From the IMG/VR virus record IMGVR_UViG_2619619135_000002: a stretch of 45,104 bases of DNA; one strand, given 5' to 3'. Below the pieces are notes generated by a model. It ran no database searches. It saw only the letters and a program-made list of their open reading frames with translations, and was not told where the DNA came from. Positions 3,603 through 35,059 of this stretch are shown here, piece after piece. Both the position numbers and the translations under genes were made by a program. Numbering within the stretch: the first letter of the stretch is position 1; every line of letters starts with the position of its first letter. Origin of the DNA: a virus. Its lineage: Duplodnaviria; Heunggongvirae; Uroviricota; Caudoviricetes.

Positions 3603-6600
3603 TCAGCTAATCGTGATGCCTGCAGTGGCTTTCTTCATCACCACAACCAGCAAATCGCTGATACTTGCTGTGGGATACCAGTTATTTACCAGCCACGCTG
3701 ACACCGAAAACTCCAGCGTCATGTGACCGTGACCAGCCGGCATATCAATAACACCACTGTAAATCAGCGTATTATCCAGCGCGGTACGGTTATAAATTTC
3801 AGCGCCGTTTTTCCGTACGATCAGACGGCATGAGGAGTAAATATCAGTATGCTCTTTCTCATGTTTAGCGCCACTGAATGCCACCGCCGGAATAACAATC
3901 TGCCGGTCAAACGGCTGATCGTCATAAACCCTGACGGTAATGGTTCCTGATGGCCACCGCTCCGGTGCACGGGAGTCCCGGGGGAAAGCTTTGCCCACTG
4001 TTTTAACGAGATCGCCTTCAATCTGGTTCGCGGACAGTTTTCCCAGAACCCGACAGTTCTCGTTAATCGTGACGTTGTTGAGCGTCCCGGAGTTCGCATT
4101 CACGTTACCGCTGATATCGGCATTTTTCGCCGTCAGCCGCCCGTCCGGTGTCAGGGAAAATGCCGGAGGATTACCGCCGCTGGTAATGGTCGGAGCCGTC
4201 AGGCGTTTCAGGAACACGTCGTTCATGAATATCTGATCGCCCTGACCAACAAACATTGGTCTTGTGTTGCCATTAGACGGATCAATAAACGCGATACGGT
4301 TAGCGGCAACCAGGAACTGGCTCAGTTTGCCTTCCTCCGTGTCCTCCATGCTGAGGCCAAGCCCCGCGACATAATGCTTACCGTCTTCGGTCTGCTCAAT
4401 TTTGACGCCCCACATGGCATTCCATTTATCGTTGGCGTCCTTCCACTCTTTCGAAAACTCCTCCAGTTTGCTGGCGTTATCTTCCGTCAGCTCGACTTTT
4501 TCCAGCAGCTCCTTGCCGAGATGGGATTCGGTTATCTGACCTTTGAAAAAATCCAGATAACCTTCCGCATCATCGCTCGCCCGACCGACAGCCTCTACGA
4601 ATGCCGATTTGCCAACGGTGTTCACACTGCAGATATAAAAGTAATAATCATGGCCCGGTTTGATATTGATACTGGCAGCTATCCAGTACAGCGCCGTGCC
4701 AAGATAGCGGGCTGTGGTTTCAACCTGCCTGATATCGGTAATCCGCTTTTCCGAGAACCAGAACTCAAACTGTACCGTCGGATCATAAACCGCAAGATGC
4801 GGCGTGGCGGTGATCTGAAAATAGCCCGGCGTCAGCTCAATCTGTGACGGCGCTGCCGGTGCGGCAATCCGGAACGATACCGATGCCGGATCGCCCTGCT
4901 GTCCCCACGCATTTACCGCCCGGACTGTCAGCCTGTAGTTCCCCAGCGCCAGCTGCCTGAAGCGGTATGTGGTTTCCGTCGTCCGGGCCGTGCTGACCAG
5001 CCGCTCACTGCCGTCATCCGCTGCCACGGCCAGGCGAAGCAGGAAGCTCACGCCCTTCACCACCTTCGGCGTGTCCCAGCGCGCCAGCACCTGATATTCT
5101 CCGCTGTCTGCGGTGGCTTCGGCAGTCAGGTGCTGCACTGCTGGCGGCGTGACACCATTCACCGTGCCGCTCAGATCGCCGTCAAAGTGCGCCCCGTTAT
5201 CCACGATGGCCTCTTTTTCCGGTACATGCTGCACGGCAGTGATGGCATACGTGCCGTCATCGTTCTCACGGATACTCACGCAGCGGAACAGGCGCTGGCG
5301 CAACGTCGGCAGCTTCAGTCCCCATACGCTGTATTCTGCAACGCCGTCAGGAACACGGCTCACTTTCACCTTCACGCCGTCGGTGACGGACTGAACCTCC
5401 ACGCTGACCGGATTGCCACTTCCGTCAACCAGGCTTATCAGCGTGGTACCGGAGGATGGCAGCGTGATTTCACGGTCGAGCGTCAGTGTCCGGGTCTGGC
5501 TGTTCACCGCCAGCACGCGACCACCGGTGCGGATACCGGCATAGTCATCATCACAGATTTCAATAACATCGCCCGGTACATGGCGAAGCCCTTCTGCGCC
5601 GACGCTGAAATCCACGGTCTGCGTTTCCAGCAGTTCTGTTTTAATCAGCCACAGCCCGGCGCGGTGTGCCTGCCCCCGGCTGGTACAGCCAAAGGCATCC
5701 ATCTTCGTAACATTACGACCGTAACGGGCAATGGCCTGCGTGTCCTCCACAAGCTCTGTCGCTGTCTCCCAGCCGTTATCCGGGTCAATCCAGTTCACCT
5801 CAACGGCATTATGGCGGTCCTTCAGGGCGCTGAAGCTGTAGCGGAACGGCGCGCCATCATCCGGCATAACCACATTACTGCGGTTATAGGTCCACACCTT
5901 ATCCGATGGTCGGTCCTGCACGAACGTCAGCGTCTGCCCGTTCCATACCGGCATACAGCGCATCGCCGAGCAGAAATCACTGAGCACATCCCACGCCTTG
6001 CGCTGTGTGGTCAGGTACGCATTACAGGTGATGCGCGGCTCCGTGCCACCAAAGCCGTCCGGCACTGACTGGTCGCAGTACTGGCCGATGACATACAGCG
6101 CCCATTTGTCCACATCCGCCGCACCAAGACGTTTCCCCATGCCGTAGCGCGGATGGGTCAGCATATCCCACAGACACCAGGCCATGTTGTTGCTGTATGC
6201 CGGTTTAAACGTTCCGTCCCAGATACCGCTGTATTGCCGCGTCTGCGGGTTATAGTTCGACGGCACCTGCAGAATGCGCCCGCGCAGATGATAATTACGG
6301 CTCACCTGCTGACTGCCGAACTGCTCCGAATCCACCTGTACGCCAACCAGTGCCGTGTTCGGGTAGCACTGTTTCACATCGATGATTTCAGTGTATGACG
6401 ACCAGAGCGTTTTGTTCTGCAGCTGGTCTGTGGTGCTGTCCGGCGTCATCCTGCGCATCCGGATGTTGAACGGGCGCGGCGGCAGGTTACCCACCACCAC
6501 CGAGGCCAGATACTGCGAGGTGGTTTTGCCCTTAATGGTGATGTCTTTTTCCGTCACCCAGCCACCGTTACGTTGTATCTGAACCAGCAGGCGGACTTCC

Positions 6601-25826: not shown

Positions 25827-26082
25827 GTTAAGGATGTATTACCAGATTTTGCTTAGTATGTGATTAATCTCAATGTCACGTTTAGCGATGTTTACAACAT
25901 CGGGATGGCACATCACCGACCCTGCCAGGAAATACAAAATCTCCACCGACAATGCGCCATTCCGCTGTTGTAAAAAATCAGCACTGTGACTATAACTGGC
26001 TTCGAACCATAGCCAGAAGACAGATAAAAAACTGTCCCCACGCAATAAAAATACGCCAGTGCCGCAATAAGGCTTGTTTCTC

Positions 26083-26157
<75 letters not shown>

Positions 26158-26374
26158 ATACTGTACTGGCTTCCGGAATCACACGAATTACCAGGAAAGC
26201 CAGCACTGGTCCTTCAGACGATAGTAACACCCCTGTGAACACAAAAATAACCGTCTTCCGGACCAGTCAGAATACTAACGACAGTTTTTCAGACATCAAA
26301 AATATATTTGGTGTTCAGTTTTAAATATGTGTATACATCTGTATCAGAAATATACAACTTATATCATCACTGAA

Positions 26375-27421
26375 TTAAAAATCTTTCGTTATTTCTCTGG
26401 CCGTCTGATTAAAACGTTCCTCTTCCAGTTCCACGCCAATCGCCCTGCGTCCCAGCGACAGTGCCGCTTTTATTGTCGACCCCGACCCCATAAAAAAATC
26501 TGCGACCAAATCGCCTGGACGGCTGCTGGCAGTAATTATCTGACGCAACATATCCGCCGGTTTTTCACAGGGATGCTTACCCGGATAAAACTGCACGGGC
26601 TTGTGCGTCCAGACATCCGTATAAGGAACGACAGCCGATACGGAAAAATAACGCCGCAGTGATTTGTATTCCTCCAGCAGGCTGGCATATTGCCGGTTCA
26701 GTTCGCTGTATGTGCTGACCAGCTGGTGGTGTGGCTTTTCCAGTTCCCCGCGCTGATGTTTTTCTGCCGCAACACGCGCAAACAACGCCTGCAGTTTTCT
26801 GTAATCAGCTTCGCTCGGTAACTGCCACTGACTGGTGCCAAACCAGTGCGAAGTCATGTTTTTCTTTCCGGTGGCTTCAGCTATCTGTTTTGACGTTATC
26901 CCCAGTGATTCACGCGCATCACGGAAGTAAGAAATCAGCGGGGCCATGACGTGCTGTTTTAGCTCGCGTCCCTTTGCCGCATAGCCGTCATTTTTGGGCT
27001 GGTATGGCCCCTGATAATGTTCTGCAAACAGAATGCGTTCTGTTGCAGGGAAATACGCCCGCAGGCTTTCCTTGTTGCATCCGTTCCAGCGTCCGGACGG
27101 CTTCGCCCAGATAATGTGGTTCAGCACATTAAAGCGTTCACGCATCATGATTTCGATATCAGATGCCAGGCGATGACCACAGAACAGGTAAAGACTTCCG
27201 GCAGGCTTCAGTACACGCCAGAATTGCGCCAGACACTGGTCCAGCCATTTCAGGTAATCATCGTCGCCCTTCCACTGGTTATCCCAGCCCTCGGGCTTCA
27301 CTTTAAAGTATGGCGGGTCTGTGACTATCAGATCGACAGAATTTTCCGGTAAGGTCTGGATAAATTCCAGGCAATCAGCGTTGATTAACTCGCAACTGGA
27401 TATTTTTACAGTATTAGCCAT
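26375..27421 (-). CDS. Orphan DNA methyltransferase, beta-class amino-MTase (N6-adenine or N4-cytosine)
   Basis: 348 aa; catalytic motif IV DPPY near the N-terminus (LIVTDPPYF) and SAM-binding motif I FxGxG near the C-terminus (FFMGSGST), the beta-class order. No adjacent restriction endonuclease. Confidence 0.85.
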   Translation of the reverse strand: MANTVKISSCELINADCLEFIQTLPENSVDLIVTDPPYFKVKPEGWDNQWKGDDDYLKWLDQCLAQFWRVLKPAGSLYLFCGHRLASDIEIMMRERFNVLNHIIWAKPSGRWNGCNKESLRAYFPATERILFAEHYQGPYQPKNDGYAAKGRELKQHVMAPLISYFRDARESLGITSKQIAEATGKKNMTSHWFGTSQWQLPSEADYRKLQALFARVAAEKHQRGELEKPHHQLVSTYSELNRQYASLLEEYKSLRRYFSVSAVVPYTDVWTHKPVQFYPGKHPCEKPADMLRQIITASSRPGDLVADFFMGSGSTIKAALSLGRRAIGVELEEERFNQTAREITKDF

Positions 27422-27571
27422 AGATCAATAAGCACTTCTCTGATAGGCTCATACCGCTTTTGCGCAAAGCAGATGGGCCTGAGGTTTGCTTGTGACCCCA
27501 ACGCATGAGCAGATGGCTGGCAGGTGCCGCTAACACCCACCAGCCGCCCATTACCACAAATTAAAAAACCT

Positions 27572-27769
27572 TCACTGCGGAAGGCGTCTGTAACAACCGA
27601 ACTGATAATCTGCCAGACCCGCCATAACAAGCTGGGTCAGTATTAACTGGCAACGTTCGCGTGAAAGGTAAGTATTCTGCGCAATTTCCCCGACGGTCGC
27701 CGGTTCGGTGACGCTTAATTCATTAAACACCACTCTGGCAGTTTCGGTCATATCCTGCTGTTTTAGCAT
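27572..27769 (-). CDS. Small putative HTH DNA-binding protein (66 aa)
   Basis: Start set at MLKQQDMTETARV; ...ATVGEIAQNTYLSRERCQLIL... resembles a helix-turn-helix; upstream of the methyltransferase. Confidence 0.45.
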   Translation of the reverse strand: MLKQQDMTETARVVFNELSVTEPATVGEIAQNTYLSRERCQLILTQLVMAGLADYQFGCYRRLPQ

Positions 27770-27892
27770 GTCTTTTTCCCTTTTCTGGTTAACGTGACAT
27801 ACCAATAACTCTTGTCGAAAAAGCCAGCAAGCTGAAAGACCCGTATTCGCAACCACCAGCGCGTTTAACGTCCTGTGCCGTTTTTAGGGCAC

Positions 27893-27915
27893 AAAAAAAC
27901 CCGCTCAGTGGCGGG
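27893..27915 (-). terminator. Rho-independent terminator, second copy of the tR'-like hairpin
   Basis: Minus strand reads CCCGCCACTGAGCGGGTTTTTTT; near-duplicate of the terminator at 28617-28639. Confidence 0.65.
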
Positions 27916-27937
27916 ATCTTTTGATAAAAACGACAAA

Positions 27938-27958
27938 GGCACCATTAAGGTGCCTTTT
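27938..27958 (+). terminator. Plus-strand hairpin plus T-run (candidate terminator for the opposite direction)
   Basis: GGCACC-ATTAA-GGTGCC-TTTT read on the plus strand. Confidence 0.4.
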
Positions 27959-28110
27959 ACACAGGGGCAGCAGGCTTGTCATCACCTCATCGCTACTCCT
28001 GGCTTCCTGTTCGGAAGTCTCACAAGTCCCATCAGGGTACAGCGACAGTATCAGCCAACACACTATGTGTGTCAATATAAATTCATATCGAATTCGATAA
28101 TCGTTTTCGA

Positions 28111-28512
28111 TTATCGATACAGATAAGCCATCCCTATCCCGTGCAATACCGCCCGTTTAATATTCTCAAACTCATCTTCCGCAATCATAGGAACAATATA
28201 ATTTCGTCCCTCCCAGGTTCTGGTTTTTATGCGATCCAGTCGGCTCAATGAAACCGTCATCAACATGTCACATTTTACCCAGCAAGTAATATGCTCATTA
28301 CCAGGTATGGGGTTTTCTGATAACTCATGATGGCAATCTCTGCGAGGGAGCGGTTCAGTAGTGCTTATTGGTACCACTGTTACCAATTGATTGTTGTGCC
28401 TGTTTCTGGACACGACCACCACTGGCCTGACCTTGACTATTTCCGGAACAACCATTCCCCGAAAATCACACATTAAAACAGAACGAACAGACGGCTGATA
28501 CTTTAATACCAT
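28111..28512 (-). CDS. PemK/MazF/Kid-fold toxin-like protein (133 aa from the ATG)
   Basis: MVLKYQPSVRSVLMCDFRGMVVPEIVKVRPVVVVSRNRHNNQLVTVVPISTTEP... aligns by eye to the MazF/Kid N-terminal pattern (Y.P.....DF......RP.VV.S....N...V.P..T). No antitoxin-sized ORF immediately upstream. Confidence 0.6.
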   Translation of the reverse strand: MVLKYQPSVRSVLMCDFRGMVVPEIVKVRPVVVVSRNRHNNQLVTVVPISTTEPLPRRDCHHELSENPIPGNEHITCWVKCDMLMTVSLSRLDRIKTRTWEGRNYIVPMIAEDEFENIKRAVLHGIGMAYLYR

Positions 28513-28616
28513 AAATCTCTTTGCCTGATAATGACGACTTGTGAACTCCACTACAAACAAAATGATTCTGCTGAACAGGCAGTTTCGCACTATACATTAT
28601 AACCTGTTAAGCCAAC

Positions 28617-28639
28617 AAAAAAACCCGCTCGGCGGCGGG
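28617..28639 (-). terminator. Rho-independent terminator downstream of the Q-like gene (tR'-like)
   Basis: Minus strand reads CCCGCCGCCGAGCGGGTTTTTTT, 67-89 nt after the Q-like stop. Confidence 0.7.
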
Positions 28640-28705
28640 ATTTGCTTACTTTGCCATCGAGTACAAAATCGGCAAAATATCAGATTTGCACGAAATATAT
28701 GCCTT

Positions 28706-29395
28706 TTAATCTACTTTTGCAACACTTTGCTTTGAAAATGCCGTCTTTTGTTCTGAACGTGTTCTCATCACAAACAATAAAGCCTCACTATCCAGCCGGT
28801 GGAAAATGTGTTTCATTGCAACCCAGTGACCAGTAAATGTTTTGGACCAGTTTTTTGTTTTTACTCCCGCCAGTAATGCCAGTTCCTGATATTCATAAGT
28901 TTCACGCCCAGCCAGCTCACTCTTCACATCCTGTGCCGCCAGCCAGATTAATTTTTTCAGGCGTTCCCGTGTTTTCTCCGCAATTTTTCTGGTACCGGAT
29001 TGAGTATTAAATTCATTCCACGCCCACTGTGTTATCGCGATCTGATATTCCCAACAAATACTCCCGCTGTAACTCCACAACAACCAGGCTTTATGATGTT
29101 CTTCAAGAGACAGAACAGCCCGCCGCCACGATGATGTCGAAAACTCAACCGGACTGACCAGAGGAATTGACGTCCCCTTCGCCAGCGATTGTTTTCCCGG
29201 GATTGGTGGATTATCCCGCGTAATCATTTTTCCGGTCACTTCATCTCGGTACCGGATTTTTTTACGCCTGTAACGCCCTGTATCGAACATGGCATTCTCC
29301 TGCCAGGCTTCAAGCTGACCTTTTGTTGCCCCACTCAAATCAGCGGTGGCGATAATGAGCTGCTCACGCACAAACTGTAAATACTGGTTATTCAT
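28706..29395 (-). CDS. Putative late-gene antiterminator (Q-like), 229 aa
   Basis: ATG overlaps the RusA stop (ATGA coupling), the arrangement seen in DLP12-type nin regions; followed by an intrinsic terminator and then late and lysis genes. Assignment is by position; the sequence is not recognisably lambda Q. Confidence 0.5.
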   Translation of the reverse strand: MNNQYLQFVREQLIIATADLSGATKGQLEAWQENAMFDTGRYRRKKIRYRDEVTGKMITRDNPPIPGKQSLAKGTSIPLVSPVEFSTSSWRRAVLSLEEHHKAWLLWSYSGSICWEYQIAITQWAWNEFNTQSGTRKIAEKTRERLKKLIWLAAQDVKSELAGRETYEYQELALLAGVKTKNWSKTFTGHWVAMKHIFHRLDSEALLFVMRTRSEQKTAFSKQSVAKVD

Positions 29396-29751
29396 GCGCA
29401 CTCCAGTTCTGTGATTTTTATCCCCAACCGACCACCAGGAACGAGCTGACCGCGCACAATATTGATTTCATCAAACTGCTCGTCGTCTATGAGAAGCCCC
29501 GCATGCATCAGTGCATCCAGCGGTGCTTTCAGGATATTGTCCAGGTCCCGACGGCGCTTATCCGGCGGCTCTGCAGTAATTTTTATTGCCAGCCTTCCGG
29601 ACAGGCTTAATTTCAGCCGCTGCTGGCGAACAATAAGCACCACAGCCCGGCGATAACGCTTTCCCTCCTCCGAGATAAAATATGTGCTGCCACGGCGTCG
29701 CCAGTAAGTGTTCACCGTCGGCGGGTAAGGTAAAACCAAATCTATGAGCAT
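29392..29751 (-). CDS. rusA: Holliday junction resolvase RusA
   Basis: 119 aa with ...PPDKRRRDLDNILKAPLDALMHAGLLIDDEQ..., the conserved RusA catalytic Asp region; size matches E. coli RusA (120 aa). Confidence 0.85.
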   Translation of the reverse strand: MLIDLVLPYPPTVNTYWRRRGSTYFISEEGKRYRRAVVLIVRQQRLKLSLSGRLAIKITAEPPDKRRRDLDNILKAPLDALMHAGLLIDDEQFDEINIVRGQLVPGGRLGIKITELECA

Positions 29752-29763
29752 CAGTCACCTCTT

Positions 29764-30813
29764 TTACCCAAGCACGCCAGTTGCAAAGGCGTGATCAAGA
29801 AAACGAAAAATTAAATCAACCTGAGAACCATGCTTTTCTTCGAACGCCAGCGGATCCGCATGAAGCTCGTTGTGATGCTCCCGACACAGCGGTAGCGTGA
29901 AAATATCGTGAGATTTTGTCCCCATTCCGCCCTGACCATGACCAATCAGGTGATGGGGATCGTCGGCTGGCTTACCACAACACGCACACGGCTGTGTCTT
30001 CACCCAGCGTGTGTATTTCTCGTTAACCCAGCGGCGACGTTTAGGTCGTTTCATGAAAGATTCCGGAGACTCAGGATCAACGGCAATGCTGACCACCGTC
30101 TTTTCCTGTGGTGGGTTCTGTTGCTGGTGGGCGTGAGGCAGCGGCGCAAGATTTTTTGTGCGCTGTTTCAGTATGCTGGTGGCGGTCTGCTCTCCCGGTA
30201 CGATGTCGCTTTCACGGTACATTGAGCGGATTTTTTCCGCACGCAACCCCAGCGAACGACGTAATACCGCCTCCGGTAGCGCGTCCGCCACCTGATTGCG
30301 GACCGCCCACCAGGATAATTCAGCCAGCGATAATTCCCGCTCCTGTGTGCCATTCATTGCGTGACGAATGACGTCAATCATCCATGCTGACAAGTTTTGG
30401 TGAGCAAGTTGCTCAAGTGATTCGGAGGTCTGGTCACGCAACTGGTTGTCGCAGTGCCAGCACAACACCATTGCGCCGGTACCATAACGGTGAATGACGG
30501 TTTCACTATGGTGATAATCGCCGTGTGGCCACTGGCAGGATTTAACATGGCGCAGTAACCAGTCAGACAATGCGCCAGCGCCACCAGCAGCACGAATCAC
30601 TCGTTCGTCGCTGAAAAATGGCAGTAATGATTTATCCTCCGCCAGCGGCTGGCGAACGGCAGGAACGACCCCGGACGGCAGATTACGCATGCTTTTCGGT
30701 TCCGGCTCCACCAGTACCCGGGTATTGTGGAATACCGGCATGGATTCACGGCCCGGCTTAACTATCACCAGCCCGAGTTCCGGTACCAGAACAGGTCGAA
30801 GTAATACCCGCAC
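29764..30813 (-). CDS. DUF968-type nin-region protein (YdfU-like) with a C-terminal Cys/His zinc-binding or HNH-like motif
   Basis: 349-aa ORF; C-terminal ...CACCGKPADDPHHLIGHGQGGMGTKSHDIFTLPLCREHHNELHADP...; GTG start abuts the upstream stop; an internal ATG at 30741 is an alternative start. Confidence 0.6.
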   Translation of the reverse strand: MRVLLRPVLVPELGLVIVKPGRESMPVFHNTRVLVEPEPKSMRNLPSGVVPAVRQPLAEDKSLLPFFSDERVIRAAGGAGALSDWLLRHVKSCQWPHGDYHHSETVIHRYGTGAMVLCWHCDNQLRDQTSESLEQLAHQNLSAWMIDVIRHAMNGTQERELSLAELSWWAVRNQVADALPEAVLRRSLGLRAEKIRSMYRESDIVPGEQTATSILKQRTKNLAPLPHAHQQQNPPQEKTVVSIAVDPESPESFMKRPKRRRWVNEKYTRWVKTQPCACCGKPADDPHHLIGHGQGGMGTKSHDIFTLPLCREHHNELHADPLAFEEKHGSQVDLIFRFLDHAFATGVLG

Positions 30814-30814
30814 G

Positions 30815-31093
30815 TTACCTCCAGATGCGTTGCTGGAATGTGCGGGACGGACGCGGTGGGCGTTCGGAGTAAGGAAGCCTGACGGAGATTATCCAGTGAC
30901 GGTAGTCGAGGCTAAGGGCTTTTTTAACCTCGTATCCGCGCCTGCGGTAACACTGAATTATCCATTCAGCCTGCTCTTCAGTGCATGGTGGATGCTGGAA
31001 CCAGTCCGATTTGAATGCATGAAAACGCCGTCCGCACCTGCTGGCAAAGACGGCAGAATCATCAGAATTGTGTAATTTGGTATCGTGCGCCAT
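30815..31093 (-). CDS. Hypothetical nin-region protein (92 aa from the ATG)
   Basis: The listed ORF starts with TTG; the first ATG gives MAHDTKLHNSDDSAVFASRCGRRFHAFKSDWFQHPPCTEEQAEWIIQCYRRRGYEV...; stop immediately precedes the DUF968 start. Confidence 0.45.
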   Translation of the reverse strand: MAHDTKLHNSDDSAVFASRCGRRFHAFKSDWFQHPPCTEEQAEWIIQCYRRRGYEVKKALSLDYRHWIISVRLPYSERPPRPSRTFQQRIWR

Positions 31094-31551
31094 CGGTTGT
31101 CTCTGCTGGCGCAGCAGGTGCCAGTTGTTCAGGCTGGCGTATAAAGTATAAATAAACTGGTTCCAGTGTAAAGCCCCTACATTAATGGAATAAAAGTCAA
31201 ACAACAGATTGCTGGGATAAACACAACGCTTATTATTAAAAGCGATTAGATAAATTAAATTTTAATGTTATGCAATTTTACCAGATCACCATAACATCTC
31301 GTTTGAAACCACCGAAACAACAACCATATCAATATTGATTATGTTAAAGTGAGTAAATATGGAAAACAACAAATCTGCACATTACGCTCCTTTTTTATCT
31401 GTGATACTTTTTGTTTTATGCTGTGTGTGGGCATTATTTTTATAAAAATATTTACAGATAAAATAAACCCGCCGAAGCGGGTTAAGCGCGGGTGCGTTGA
31501 GGATGCCTGACACATCAGAGGCGGCGAGGGATTTCTCCCTCGCCTGGTCTC

Positions 31552-31707
31552 TTACTCCTCAGGTTCGTAGACTGTGAAGACAGCGACCTCCGTCTGGCCG
31601 GTTCGGATTCGTACCTCGCAGAGGTCTTTCCTCGTTACCAGTGCCGTCACTATGACGGTTAAACAGATGACGATCAGGGCGATTAACATCGCCTTTTGCT
31701 GCTTCAT
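31552..31707 (-). CDS. hok: Hok/Gef-family type I toxin (HokD/RelF-like), 51 aa
   Basis: MKQQKAMLIALIVICLTVIVTALVTRKDLCEVRIRTGQTEVAVFTVYEPEE: single TM helix plus the conserved C-x-[VI]-R periplasmic motif; near-identical to HokD as recalled. The in-frame upstream extension in the listed ORF is likely leader (mok-like) sequence. Confidence 0.85.
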   Translation of the reverse strand: MKQQKAMLIALIVICLTVIVTALVTRKDLCEVRIRTGQTEVAVFTVYEPEE

Positions 31708-32554
31708 AGCCTGCTTCTCCTTGCCTTTCGGCACGTAAGAGGCTAACCTAGATTTGCCGTTCATAGATTGAGCCTCAGATTAATGTTAAGCGTCTTGCAG
31801 GACGCGTAATGTTAACTGGGGCTTTTCTCTATCTGCCTTTGGTGTTCATGCCTGAGACAGATAGCCTCAAGCACCCGCAGCCATTGTACTTAACTCCCGT
31901 TACCTCGCCAATATAAAATCAATCAGAAAGGCGATCCATAAGGACAATAGCAAGACAATAAATTGCCATTACCCGCAATAGCCAGCGCACATTTGAGGAC
32001 CAGCACGACAACTTTCTGTATCGGACGTACACCAGTCCTGATAAATACAAGGCGGTCTCATCAGTGATGAAATGCAACTATTGAGTACAGTTTCTCTGAT
32101 TTTTCTGTAAAACATGGAACACAACAACTAAATATAACTAGCACTTCTTAAGATGTACAAATTCAGAGTTAAGATAACGTAAGCAGTTTTCTCAAAACTA
32201 AGTGTAAATTTTTAATGAAGAGCAGTGCTATGCTCCTGATCATATATTCATTGTTTGGAACTGGAGGAATATTTAGGTTGCTGGAGTGGTTGATTGAATT
32301 TAAATCAACTAAGACAAAAACCAACAATTAAAGATATGTGGTATATCAGAAAACAACTATCCGTATATTACTACAGAATTAAATACTAGCAACAAAGCTG
32401 TCTTTATTGATTTTTTATCTGATATCGAAATAAATAAACATAAAATAACCAACTAATTAAAACAGAGACTCGACAATGAGCCTCTATCTATTGTAACAGC
32501 ACTTCCAAATTTATTTTAGTAAGATAATAGCATGGGGCATACTAGCCCCATCTT

Positions 32555-35059
32555 TTAAACCGTTTCATCAAGGAAATACTTAGACGAATCATCCTGTTTC
32601 GGTTGATATGTTTTTTTTGCAGAATTAAGAACTCTTCTTAGTTCTTTTCTTAACTCAGGTAAACGCTCCTGAAGAGGGTTAGAACACCATTGTGAAGGCA
32701 ACCCTCTTATAATAGCTTCGGAACAAAGCGGTGAAATAAGTTTTTCCATTTGATAATAGAAAGTTTTTGCTCGACTTACACGCATTGTGATCCTTTTTAT
32801 TACATCTCTTTCAGACTCAATTCTAGCACTCAGATCTCTTAATCTACTCCATACCTTAGCATCAGCAATATATGTATCATAAAGCATACACTCTATAAAC
32901 GTGAAATTACTAATAAGTTCTTTTGCAATATACCCCCCCAGCCGAGAAGGAATGAAACTTGATGAAGCTGTTGGATCTCCGTGATTTACGGTGAACAAAA
33001 ACCTTTTATTGCATAAATCAACGAGAACTCGATGCGTGAAAGAGTCACCTATACCAATTAACCTTAACTTTTCAGTTATTACCGAACCATCGATTTGTCT
33101 GAATCCGGGATCGCTTGCATACGAAACGATAACATTAAGAATGTACAGCCTCAATAATTGCATTTGTGTCACAGCTAAATTCGAATCAAACGGGTTCGCA
33201 ATAGTCGACGTTGACTCGCTATAAGTCAACTCAGTACCCAGTAATATAGCTCTAAATGCCTCATGACGTGGAAGAAGATATCTTCCTTGTTCTCTGAAAA
33301 TTTGTACTGCTTTACCTGGACTCGTATACCCTCTTTCTAAGAACTCACGAGTCATACGTAATGCTAATCGAACATCATCCGTAGCAAGAACTTCAATACG
33401 TGTTCCAATCTCACTTCCCAGCACAGACCCACTAATAATATCGACTAATTGTGATATATCATCCAATACAACTTTAGCGCCATTTTCTGCAATAAAATTT
33501 CCACTTTTATTACTTGTCATATACTTTACTAGTGCAAAGCGTTTTGCAATCACACTACTTATTCTCGGTGGATCTATTTGTATAACTTCAAAATCGAAAG
33601 CATCTATAGCAGGTGAGTTTTTATGTTTGATAAATGTAGACTGCCTCAATGAAAGTACTAAATTTAATGAAAGCGCTCTGGAAATTGAAAATGACTCGGT
33701 AAATATCCGGGACTGGATATCATCAAACTCGATCTGATCAACGTTATCAATAACAAGAAAAAAAGATGTCTCTTTTGTAACGCGACTTATTATTTTATCA
33801 ACATAAGGTTTTATCTTTTTATATTGTTCATATAAAAAATCCGAGATTCTGGTATTTTTTTGATCCTCACTCAATAAAAAAAGAGGTCCTGATTTTATCG
33901 CCTCAATATCTTCTCGAAATGCATCAAATACAAAATCCTTATTACTCAAAACAGGATGCTTATTGATATATTCCAGAATTGATTTATAAATAAAATCGAC
34001 TATTGAACTTTCTGATGGATTATCTAGAAAGTCTATATGAACCCAATGCGGCGTCAAGATATCACATTGATTTGAAAAAAACTCTTTTATTCTAACCTTT
34101 CTCATGTAATGAAGAAATGTTGTTTTACCTGCACCTACAGTCCCAAGTAACAAGATCGCGAGAGGTTTGTCATTCCTGACTTTTATTTTTTTCTTCCCTT
34201 TAACCTGAAACTTATCAACTATTCTTTTTGTATCTTTATCATTAAGCCCTTTTAGTACTTCACCATTCAGCACACTTGAACGCCTACCTATATTCATTCT
34301 AATTTTACTATCGAATCTCATAGTTTCTGGTGTTGAAACATAACATTTATCAAAGGAGTCTTCATCCAAGTAAAGTATAGAATCAGAAAAAGCCAACCTT
34401 AATTCATCAGCAATCAAATGATATATTGGATTATTTGTCTGTGTTCTGTTTTGTTGCGAATAAAAATTTCTTAATTTTCTAAATTCTATTTGATTTTCGA
34501 CGCGACCTAAAAGTGCTGTTTCTAGACTTCCTGATATAACATTTTCACGACTAAGTAAATCATAGAATTCTTGATAATTATCATTTAAGCAATCTTCTAA
34601 CGACCAGAACACAAGCGCTATTGAATCATTAAATTTGACATTGTCATGCCTCTGAGCTGCAAAACATGCCCATACATTTCCATTCGTAGCGACAGCATAA
34701 TCTATACCAAATTTCCTGGCGTAATCTCTAGCTTGTATTATCGCTTCACCAAGATCACTTTGTAAAAAACTATTACTTAGCTTTATTTTTCTTTTTCCTG
34801 GAATTGTACTAAAGCTTGGCCCTGCCTTTTTAGCTTCAACAACAAGAGCAATATTAGCTGTTTTTAGTATATAATCAGCATAAGTTGTCAAACCATCTTC
34901 AGTCACATGCTCTTCTGGTTTTATATCACTATCAGTCCACATCAAGACTTCCTTTAATACCCGATCTATCACTTTTAGTCTTGTGGCTGCTTCATTTGCA
35001 TTTTCTAATTGTAAATGATGATAAGCTGATAATATTTCCGAAATAAATGTTTTCTCCAT
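32555..35059 (-). CDS. Large nuclease-NTPase fusion protein: N-terminal PD-(D/E)xK (HsdR-N/Mrr-like) nuclease domain plus STAND/NACHT-like P-loop NTPase plus alpha-helical C-terminal domain; candidate antiphage defence protein
   Basis: 834 aa. Residues about 60-77 TYADYILKTANIALVVEAKK give the D...E-x-K nuclease signature, followed by ...YAVATNGNVW... Walker A at about 306-313 (GTVGAGKT); Walker B at about 433-442 (FFLVIDNVDQ, a D-x-h-D-E/Q pattern typical of STAND NTPases). The gene and its flanks are visibly AT-rich relative to the rest of the prophage. Confidence 0.6.
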   Translation of the reverse strand: MEKTFISEILSAYHHLQLENANEAATRLKVIDRVLKEVLMWTDSDIKPEEHVTEDGLTTYADYILKTANIALVVEAKKAGPSFSTIPGKRKIKLSNSFLQSDLGEAIIQARDYARKFGIDYAVATNGNVWACFAAQRHDNVKFNDSIALVFWSLEDCLNDNYQEFYDLLSRENVISGSLETALLGRVENQIEFRKLRNFYSQQNRTQTNNPIYHLIADELRLAFSDSILYLDEDSFDKCYVSTPETMRFDSKIRMNIGRRSSVLNGEVLKGLNDKDTKRIVDKFQVKGKKKIKVRNDKPLAILLLGTVGAGKTTFLHYMRKVRIKEFFSNQCDILTPHWVHIDFLDNPSESSIVDFIYKSILEYINKHPVLSNKDFVFDAFREDIEAIKSGPLFLLSEDQKNTRISDFLYEQYKKIKPYVDKIISRVTKETSFFLVIDNVDQIEFDDIQSRIFTESFSISRALSLNLVLSLRQSTFIKHKNSPAIDAFDFEVIQIDPPRISSVIAKRFALVKYMTSNKSGNFIAENGAKVVLDDISQLVDIISGSVLGSEIGTRIEVLATDDVRLALRMTREFLERGYTSPGKAVQIFREQGRYLLPRHEAFRAILLGTELTYSESTSTIANPFDSNLAVTQMQLLRLYILNVIVSYASDPGFRQIDGSVITEKLRLIGIGDSFTHRVLVDLCNKRFLFTVNHGDPTASSSFIPSRLGGYIAKELISNFTFIECMLYDTYIADAKVWSRLRDLSARIESERDVIKRITMRVSRAKTFYYQMEKLISPLCSEAIIRGLPSQWCSNPLQERLPELRKELRRVLNSAKKTYQPKQDDSSKYFLDETV

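Follow-up and report, generated by a model that had tools for sequence, protein, structure and literature searches.

A MazF/PemK-fold putative toxin gene paired with a structured small-RNA gene in an Escherichia coli lambdoid prophage and in distant bacteria

We analysed a stretch of 45,104 nucleotides (nt) of viral DNA (Caudoviricetes; IMG/VR record IMGVR_UViG_2619619135_000002), hereafter the window, which is an Escherichia coli lambdoid prophage. The locus under study belongs to a row of genes all encoded on the minus strand, namely DUF968, RusA, the late-gene antiterminator Q, an open reading frame (ORF) of 133 amino acids (aa), a TrmB-like gene, a methyltransferase gene and tRNA-Gly. Judged from its sequence, the segment running from 28535 to 27925 on this strand is a two-gene module composed of a MazF/PemK-fold putative toxin and a separately promoted structured RNA. 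A previous sequence-only reading had described the toxin gene as solitary; directly downstream of it, however, lies a conserved structured small-RNA gene that travels with the toxin family across phyla. The features of the module and its immediate flanks are listed below.

27925..28535, minus strand: conserved two-gene unit, the extent of homology to the Enterobacter and Klebsiella modules (71-74% identity)
28596..28601, minus strand: perfect TATAAT just after the terminator tR', with a poor -35; candidate weak toxin promoter in an E. coli-specific flank
28111..28512, minus strand: 133-aa MazF/PemK-fold protein of the 'YifN' subfamily, putative endoribonuclease toxin (PF02452 match, structural model, aligned residues)
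28094..28117, unstranded: perfect 10-4-10 palindrome TCGATAATCG-4 nt-CGATTATCGA, 100% complementary, over the stop codon
28047..28075, minus strand: small-RNA promoter TTGACA-17-GATACT (10/12 match)
27926..28040, minus strand: structured small RNA of about 115 nt, candidate RNA antitoxin (covariance-model match 102 bits; minimum free energy -43.9 kcal/mol, z -4.4)
27935..27957, minus strand: intrinsic terminator hairpin of the small RNA (helix 5; compensatory changes in 6/7 pairs)
28065..28561: segment of about 495 bp absent from a toxin-less E. coli allele, with CAT microhomology at the junction

Translation of the ORF at 28111-28512 from its ATG gives 133 aa, and the stop codon occupies 28111-28113. 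The sole Pfam match of the protein was PF02452 (PemK_toxin; E 7.6e-14, 52.3 bits against a cut-off of 23.1). An AlphaFold2 model built from 43 homologues (predicted local distance difference test, pLDDT, 94.6; predicted template-modelling score, pTM, 0.87) gave 76 matches at E<=0.001 when searched against the PDB with Foldseek, and the top 50 listed were all MazF-family proteins (MazF, YdcE, MoxT, mRNA interferases). The top matches had a target template-modelling (TM) score of 0.75-0.81 and a probability of 1.0, the best being MazF of Staphylococcus aureus, Bacillus subtilis, B. cereus, Mycobacterium tuberculosis and E. coli. By model and structural search the protein thus has the SH3-like barrel of the MazF/Kid fold. 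In E. coli MazF, residues E24, R29 and T52 are needed for RNA cleavage. These align with E24, R29 and S50 of the 133-aa protein, which are invariant in the 43 homologues, although the alignment is of modest confidence (hhalign probability 58%). The invariance and the alignment together suggest that the protein is likely an active RNase. The MazF/Kid signature noticed in the sequence-only reading is therefore borne out by the Pfam match, the model and the retained catalytic positions.

No solved MazF protein was matched by the 133-aa protein with phmmer, and the family profile reached them only marginally (E ~0.02); the protein belongs to a distinct subfamily. It carries an insertion of about 25 residues (53-77) with a conserved HH and W78. 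The subfamily is labelled 'YifN (PemK superfamily)' by JGI, the product in E. coli strain CH4793 is labelled 'type II toxin-antitoxin system PemK/MazF family toxin' by the NCBI pipeline, and PHROGs lists the family as of unknown function. PADLOC gave no match for the toxin and holds no specific model for the family, nor does NCBIfam. The family is large: 823 clusters (50% identity) were matched at E<=1e-10, and relatives were found in 501 species among species-representative genomes.

The promoter of the small-RNA gene, which lies about 70 nt past the toxin stop codon, is a near-consensus promoter of the sigma-70 type. The 5' part of the RNA is a P1 hairpin of the GUUCCC-GAAA-GGGGC type, followed by a conserved single-stranded linker, UUGUGAGAC, and then by a hairpin of variable length; the apical loop of the long hairpin, GAUGACAA, is essentially invariant. 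The 3' end is formed by the intrinsic terminator, which also ends the toxin transcript, and then a conserved UUUGUC. Paired cells in the RNA alignment amounted to 94%, compared with 38-59% for slid controls, and compensatory changes were present in 17 of 26 pairs (RNAalifold, pair counts). The covariation score of 0.477 compared with 0.07-0.13 in slid controls and was reached by none of 500 shuffles. The window copy folds alone into the common structure. Of 75 distinct homologous loci, 72 have a -10-like hexamer upstream of the RNA; in 68, exactly 6 nt separate the end of this hexamer from the first helix. A small ORF within the RNA was excluded by indels that are not multiples of three and by the helix of variable length. 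With its own promoter, covarying helices and a terminator, and without coding capacity, the element has the properties of a structured noncoding RNA gene.

A search of Rfam 15 gave no match at E<=1 for the RNA of the window or of six diverse loci. A pseudoknot between CUUGU and ACAAG was considered and found unsupported, its 5' side varying without compensation. In all 37 E. coli genomes that have the RNA, its site is unannotated or overlaid by a 'hypothetical protein', and in one genome by a helix-turn-helix ORF. In locus L002 (3390-3587) and its equivalents in E. coli strains that make Shiga toxin (STEC), a 65-aa 'hypothetical protein' annotated by NCBI extends across the RNA terminator and the second of two terminator copies described below; this ORF over the RNA gene is most likely spurious. 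The palindrome over the toxin stop codon, reported in the sequence-only reading, is present at 28094-28117. It lies 19 nt upstream of the -35 of the RNA promoter and is not followed by a U-tract. Its sequence is specific to the E. coli module, Enterobacter having a different hairpin in the equivalent place, and it could be an operator or a transcript-processing site.

When the 3' tail of the module served as the nhmmer query, nearly all loci that had been retrieved for their similarity to the toxin protein showed the RNA downstream of the gene, and a covariance model was built from 38 diverse copies. By these two methods the RNA was located just past the toxin stop codon in 78 of 80 genomes of different species, and the 78 span alpha-, beta- and gamma-proteobacteria, Anaerolineales and one Saccharibacteria bin. 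In one of the two exceptions an ORF resembling those of insertion sequences stands at the RNA position and the locus is cut by the contig end; the other is Alysiella, without the RNA. Homology to the Enterobacter and Klebsiella modules extends from 28535 through the ORF plus about 185 nt to about 27925, and Xenorhabdus matches the unit in two separate pieces (28512-28190 and 28041-27963). The RNA also adjoins the Geobacter toxin copy and 40-42% identical toxin relatives in Alcanivorax and Paragemmobacter. In Alcanivorax (L185, 1783-1894) the toxin and RNA genes are convergent: the RNA is encoded downstream on the opposite strand, with 39 nt between it and the toxin stop codon, which indicates an independent gene rather than a 3' untranslated region (UTR). 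We are very confident that this RNA gene exists and that it is linked to the toxin.

Some loci show further arrangements. Small tectivirus-like Vibrio elements have a divergent RNA copy after the toxin homologue. In one of them, the 13.5-kb Vibrio phage 10N.239.311.A09_PE001 (L099), a 38% identical homologue and an RNA copy with the loop GAUAACAA stand together at the end (4995-5675); cro-like and LexA-like genes adjoin. In the Saccharibacteria-labelled bin (L036, 4611-4907), a group II intron begins about 80 nt after the RNA. On an Oxalobacteraceae chromosome (L012, 8221-8351), a second, lone RNA (91 bits) with no adjoining toxin ORF lies 3.8 kb downstream of a toxin-RNA pair.

The RNA also occurs by itself. 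Retrieval of phage contigs by a 15-nt RNA motif gave 40 real copies, one of them cut by the contig end; a toxin gene stands directly upstream in 26 of the 39 assessable copies and is missing from that position in 13. Lone copies bearing a promoter were found in prophages of the L173, L180, L182, L172 and L124 type. In six phage contigs (L124, L136, L137, L167, L171 and L176) the toxin-less RNA comes some 50 nt behind a pR'-like promoter belonging to an antiterminator of the PF03589 type, and in such L124-type prophages the RNA terminator may serve as tR'. The toxin and the RNA are together carried by 24 of 5426 complete E. coli genomes, while nine other E. coli genomes have the toxin-less allele, in which the ORF and the -35 of the RNA promoter are gone and the RNA is kept. 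An 'empty site' as the ancestral state was rejected for this allele: what it retains is the 3' part of a module shared across genera, which indicates a deletion rather than a site that was never occupied. In four more E. coli genomes the RNA is present without an adjoining YifN-like toxin gene (checked in two, L104 and L105); the RNA follows another antiterminator type in three and a Panacea-domain gene in one. In the latter (E. coli A34; L105, 2440-3100), an 80% identical RNA comes after a gene for a Panacea-domain (PanA-like antitoxin) protein and an unannotated ORF, with a partial duplicate of the RNA terminator upstream. The RNA may thus associate also with other toxin modules.

A protein antitoxin was sought around the gene. 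ORF lists of both strands showed no conserved ORF adjoining the toxin gene in the window, and cross-genus nucleotide homology starts only 23 nt before the toxin ATG, in keeping with the earlier remark that no antitoxin-sized ORF precedes the gene. Clustering of the neighbours in 80 loci revealed no ORF family common to different genera. Nine upstream candidate ORFs scanned against Pfam included none of antitoxin type (seven without a match, one integrase fragment and one 169-aa HTH_3 protein), and a tenth, a divergent neighbour in Pseudomonas, had no Pfam match. The Pseudomonas and Geobacter toxin copies are flanked by unrelated divergent or convergent genes. By these sequence comparisons no protein antitoxin appears to be encoded here or in relatives, and the adjacent, co-transcribed protein antitoxin gene of type II systems was not found. 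In a metagenomic relative (L187; 39% identity, without the RNA), a 207-aa ORF at 1374-1997, for which Pfam gave no match, stops 4 nt short of the toxin gene; at this margin of the family it may encode a protein partner. The sequence-only reading had pointed to the downstream helix-turn-helix (HTH) gene, the TrmB-like gene at 27572-27769, as a candidate partner acting in trans. This candidate was rejected, as the two genes do not co-occur: the TrmB-like gene and the methylase gene are present without the toxin in phiP27 and many Stx phages, and SE11-type prophages have the toxin and lack the TrmB-like gene, which belongs to a neighbouring module outside the toxin-RNA system. That reading had also held that a conserved upstream antitoxin gene, missed at the time, would refute it. 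A missed partner does exist, but it is an RNA and lies downstream.

The toxin gene is almost never found without the RNA (78 of 80 genomes) and the RNA is sometimes found alone, an asymmetry that is the signature of toxin-antitoxin systems. The loop GAUGACAA is invariant and no complementary site is conserved in the toxin 5' UTR, which favours recognition by a protein over antisense pairing. The best reading is a toxin/RNA-antitoxin variant that would use a canonical MazF-superfamily toxin, type-III-like and unrelated to ToxIN. We consider it slightly more likely than not that the RNA neutralises the toxin; that it does so by direct binding is a more tentative proposal, to which we give a little less than even chances. 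Toxicity, neutralisation, binding and biological role are all features that we infer for the module. If it works in this way, the strong RNA promoter would keep the RNA in excess, and toxin transcripts, with no terminator before the RNA, would read through it to its own terminator. The RNA would bind the toxin dimer by the invariant loop and block the RNase groove, a type-III-like neutralisation. Once RNA synthesis stopped or the element was lost, the RNA would decay and the freed toxin would cleave cellular or phage RNA. In the window the module is prophage cargo, set between tR' and the mosaic module that comes next in the late-operon leader, and after induction the Q-modified polymerase would also transcribe it whole.

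Several observations weigh against neutralisation of the toxin by the RNA. Two relatives, L079 and L187, are without the RNA, and the lone promoter-bearing copies in prophages may point to an independent function of the RNA. As a promoter of the toxin gene the window offers a TATAAT with a poor -35, the TAAAAT seen as -10 in Enterobacter not being conserved in it. The RNA is single-copy and downstream, unlike the upstream tandem-repeat arrays of known type III systems. The 4- and 5-mers of the loop are not depleted in 40 diverse toxin ORFs, giving no sign of the loop as a cleavage site, and a self-avoided cleavage motif was accordingly rejected. Finally, the loop has a 10-nt complement in the toxin 5' UTR of Enterobacter and Klebsiella and an 8-nt complement in the window, which leaves room for a clade-specific antisense contribution.

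Any specific protein-RNA partnership would suit the linkage and the invariant loop, and the RNA might be the functional product (for example a regulatory small RNA) that the MazF-fold protein matures, trims or chaperones without growth arrest. Lone RNA copies with their own promoters in prophages fit such a processing pair, as do the Pseudomonas copies, which occupy a syntenic chromosomal site as housekeeping genes do. The protein, however, keeps every catalytic residue of a general mRNA interferase, and lone RNAs would be non-functional if it were needed for their maturation; if the protein depends on the RNA, and not the other way round, one expects to find the RNA by itself at times and the toxin never. 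We therefore regard this explanation as unlikely. Still less probable is a type-I-like antisense mechanism, in which the loop GGUGAUGACAAG would pair with the 5' UTR of the toxin mRNA and block translation or trigger decay. The complement in Enterobacter and Klebsiella is perfect and lies at -25 (p ~0.01-0.02), and Neisseria has one of 9 nt. Over 71 distinct loci, however, the median complementary run was 6, equal to the shuffled mean of 6.0, with p<=0.05 in 5.6% of loci, and whole-RNA duplex energies were no better than those of shuffles. Loop pairing with the toxin 5' UTR was therefore rejected as a general rule. The loop is invariant across phyla while the UTRs diverge, which points to a protein partner, and the toxin is not a small membrane peptide.

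A further explanation, built on the earlier reading, is that an unneutralised toxin is silenced in the lysogen by tR' and made only after Q-mediated antitermination, for instance for host shut-off, in which case the RNA would be incidental. There are terminators on both sides of the gene, and its place in enteric prophages is always between a late activator and the genes for lysis. This activator is either Mu Mor or a Q protein, the Q proteins belonging to three Pfam families that are not related; prophages of Enterobacter, Klebsiella and Xenorhabdus, where the activators are PF03589, PF06530 and Mu Mor, have the toxin-RNA pair in the equivalent slot. The interval between Q and lysis genes is, however, a general cargo site, occupied in phiP27 by stx and a GIY-YIG gene. 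Pseudomonas, Caulobacteraceae, Geobacter and others carry the toxin gene and its RNA on the chromosome, with no relation to a late operon of any phage, and the linkage to the RNA is far too consistent to be incidental. We judge this explanation very improbable. Little credence is also given to a degenerate or non-toxic MazF relative whose conserved downstream element is a mere transcript-stabilising 3' structure with a terminator, as might be suspected of a family without a specific PADLOC or NCBIfam model and of unknown function in PHROGs. The 823 clusters and the invariant catalytic positions indicate purifying selection, and a passive structure agrees neither with an RNA promoter in fixed register nor with the opposite-strand RNA of Alcanivorax and the lone promoter-bearing copies.

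The module may represent an unrecognised and widespread toxin-antitoxin or defence class, in which a PemK/MazF-fold RNase would be neutralised by a single structured, promoter-bearing RNA through its invariant loop instead of by a MazE-type protein, and lone prophage RNAs would be decoys against host toxins. This wider proposal is offered tentatively, as somewhat less than an even bet. Its extent would be at least about 80 sampled species with the module, 501 species with the toxin and the 823 clusters at 50% identity. The literature, of which our coverage was incomplete so that a description elsewhere is possible, yielded no account of the toxin-RNA pair or of the conserved RNA strings.

The surroundings of the module were compared with those of related phages. 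The neighbouring features are as follows.

29764-30813, minus strand: DUF968 gene
29392-29751, minus strand: RusA gene
28706..29401, minus strand: late-gene antiterminator Q, phage 82 type (Pfam PF06323, E 9.4e-93)
28694..28722, minus strand: pR'-like late promoter TTGCAA-17-TATATT, overlapping the end of Q (consensus scan)
28617..28689, minus strand: short pR' leader to tR' (terminator copy 1; stem 28639-28624, then T7)
27893..27917, minus strand: terminator copy 2, the 5' boundary of the TrmB-methylase module
27572..27769, minus strand: TrmB-like winged-helix (HTH) gene (weak Pfam TrmB match; phrog_331)
26375-27421, minus strand: N6/N4 DNA methyltransferase gene

The Q gene has 79% nucleotide identity to the Q gene of phage 82. 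The toxin ORF begins 194 nt downstream of it, behind tR' in the late-operon leader, so that its position directly after a Q-like gene was rightly described. The pR'-like promoter appears to be placed as in lambdoid late promoters, and transcription from pR' to tR' would give a leader RNA of about 70 nt of the lambda 6S/StxS/IsrK class. StxS (PMC7547250) and IsrK (PMC4825925) are short pR' leader RNAs, a class with lambda 6S. The leader at 28617-28689 has a weak Rfam isrK match (19.5 bits, below the gathering score of 50) and may act in regulation, as a leader RNA like StxS and IsrK.

The 27-nt terminator occurs twice, at 27891-27917 and 28615-28641, the copies being 25/27 identical and each consisting on the minus (coding) strand of a GC stem and then T7. 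Its core pattern has exactly two occurrences in the 45-kb window, against 0 expected (100 shuffles). The sequence-only reading was right that two copies flank the one gene, at the positions it gave, and it proposed that the terminator had been duplicated by insertion of a cassette. That origin was rejected: the copies belong to different mosaic modules, and the toxin-less E. coli allele keeps both. The Q/pR' module has its 3' end in copy 1, and homology to PPompW phages stops exactly there, tRNA genes coming next in those phages. Copy 2 is the edge of the TrmB-methylase module, and phiP27 homology begins exactly there; phiP27 has an equal terminator after its GIY-YIG nuclease gene. By sequence comparison the terminator copies thus appear to be recurrent boundaries of mosaic modules and are likely recombination joints. 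Other cargo is found at the corresponding junctions in the PPompW and phiP27 relatives. The toxin-RNA unit is a lambdoid moron, being self-contained, located between conserved phage modules and variably present among related phages.

The closest relative of the window is strain CH4793, with 99.9% identity over 27400-29450 and 99.1% over the longer stretch 26403-33449. Homology stops just downstream of the methylase gene, at about 25890-26400 of the window, where the window has one tRNA-Gly(UCC) (26083-26157) and CH4793 has tRNA-Thr and tRNA-Gly. This break is another mosaic joint.

MazF and PemK are the textbook examples of type II toxins. 'Orphan' copies tend to be written off, either as decayed genes or as toxins that something neutralises in trans; in the present case an entire subfamily is tied to a structured RNA annotated by no pipeline. 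If the RNA is an antitoxin, RNA-based neutralisation reaches the MazF superfamily proper, RNA databases gain a new and easily testable family, hundreds of 'solitary toxins' are accounted for and a possible prophage strategy of RNA decoys emerges. The module occupies the cargo site of Shiga toxin genes in related phages, and its expression is therefore relevant to STEC prophages before and after induction.

The toxin of the module has its fold in common with those of type II systems (MazEF, PemIK, Kis-Kid), and likewise the aligned catalytic residues E24, R29 and T52 (here S). The module differs from these systems by the absence, here and in relatives, of a MazE/PemI-type protein gene upstream or adjacent, and its toxin differs from type II MazF by the insertion at 53-77 with HH and W78 and by its marginal similarity to solved MazF proteins. 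It is like type III systems (ToxIN, CptIN, TenpIN) in pairing an endoribonuclease-type toxin with an adjacently encoded noncoding RNA. Type III RNAs are transcribed in excess, and systems of this type travel on mobile elements and serve against phages, which we count as a further likeness. ToxN itself was reportedly found by Blower et al. in 2011 to have a Kid/MazF-like fold. The toxin of the module, however, belongs to PF02452 (PemK/MazF) and not to ToxN/AbiQ, and one structured RNA of about 115 nt takes the place of a tandem array of 34-37-nt repeats; no tandem repeats were found in 27700-28900 of the window. Moreover, the RNA is downstream (once on the opposite strand) with its own promoter, whereas the type III RNA is upstream behind a leaky terminator. 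Linkage, the invariant loop and the asymmetric occurrence nevertheless suggest that the RNA may bind and inhibit the toxin as in type III. From type I systems the module is set apart by a 133-aa soluble RNase fold in place of a small hydrophobic toxin, by loop-UTR pairing at chance level and by duplex z-scores that are not significant.

Phage phiTE is said, after Blower et al. in 2012, to encode a pseudo-ToxI that mimics the antitoxin. By pure analogy, the lone prophage RNAs (13 of 39 assessable copies) would fit decoys that disarm a host toxin of the family; unlike pseudo-ToxI, some lone copies are clearly deletion remnants (L003 type). The lambda 6S, StxS and IsrK leaders find their counterpart in the transcript from 28689 to 28617 upstream of the toxin gene, and in L124-type prophages the new RNA sits at the place of the leader and tR'. 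The window RNA, in contrast, has its own promoter, follows the toxin gene and matches these leaders in neither sequence nor structure. Like lambdoid morons such as stx, the module is a self-contained unit that brings its own promoter and terminator, lies between Q/pR'/tR' and the lysis genes and varies in its presence among prophages that are otherwise related; unlike other lambdoid morons, it is a protein and RNA pair that is also found on the chromosomes of distant bacteria.

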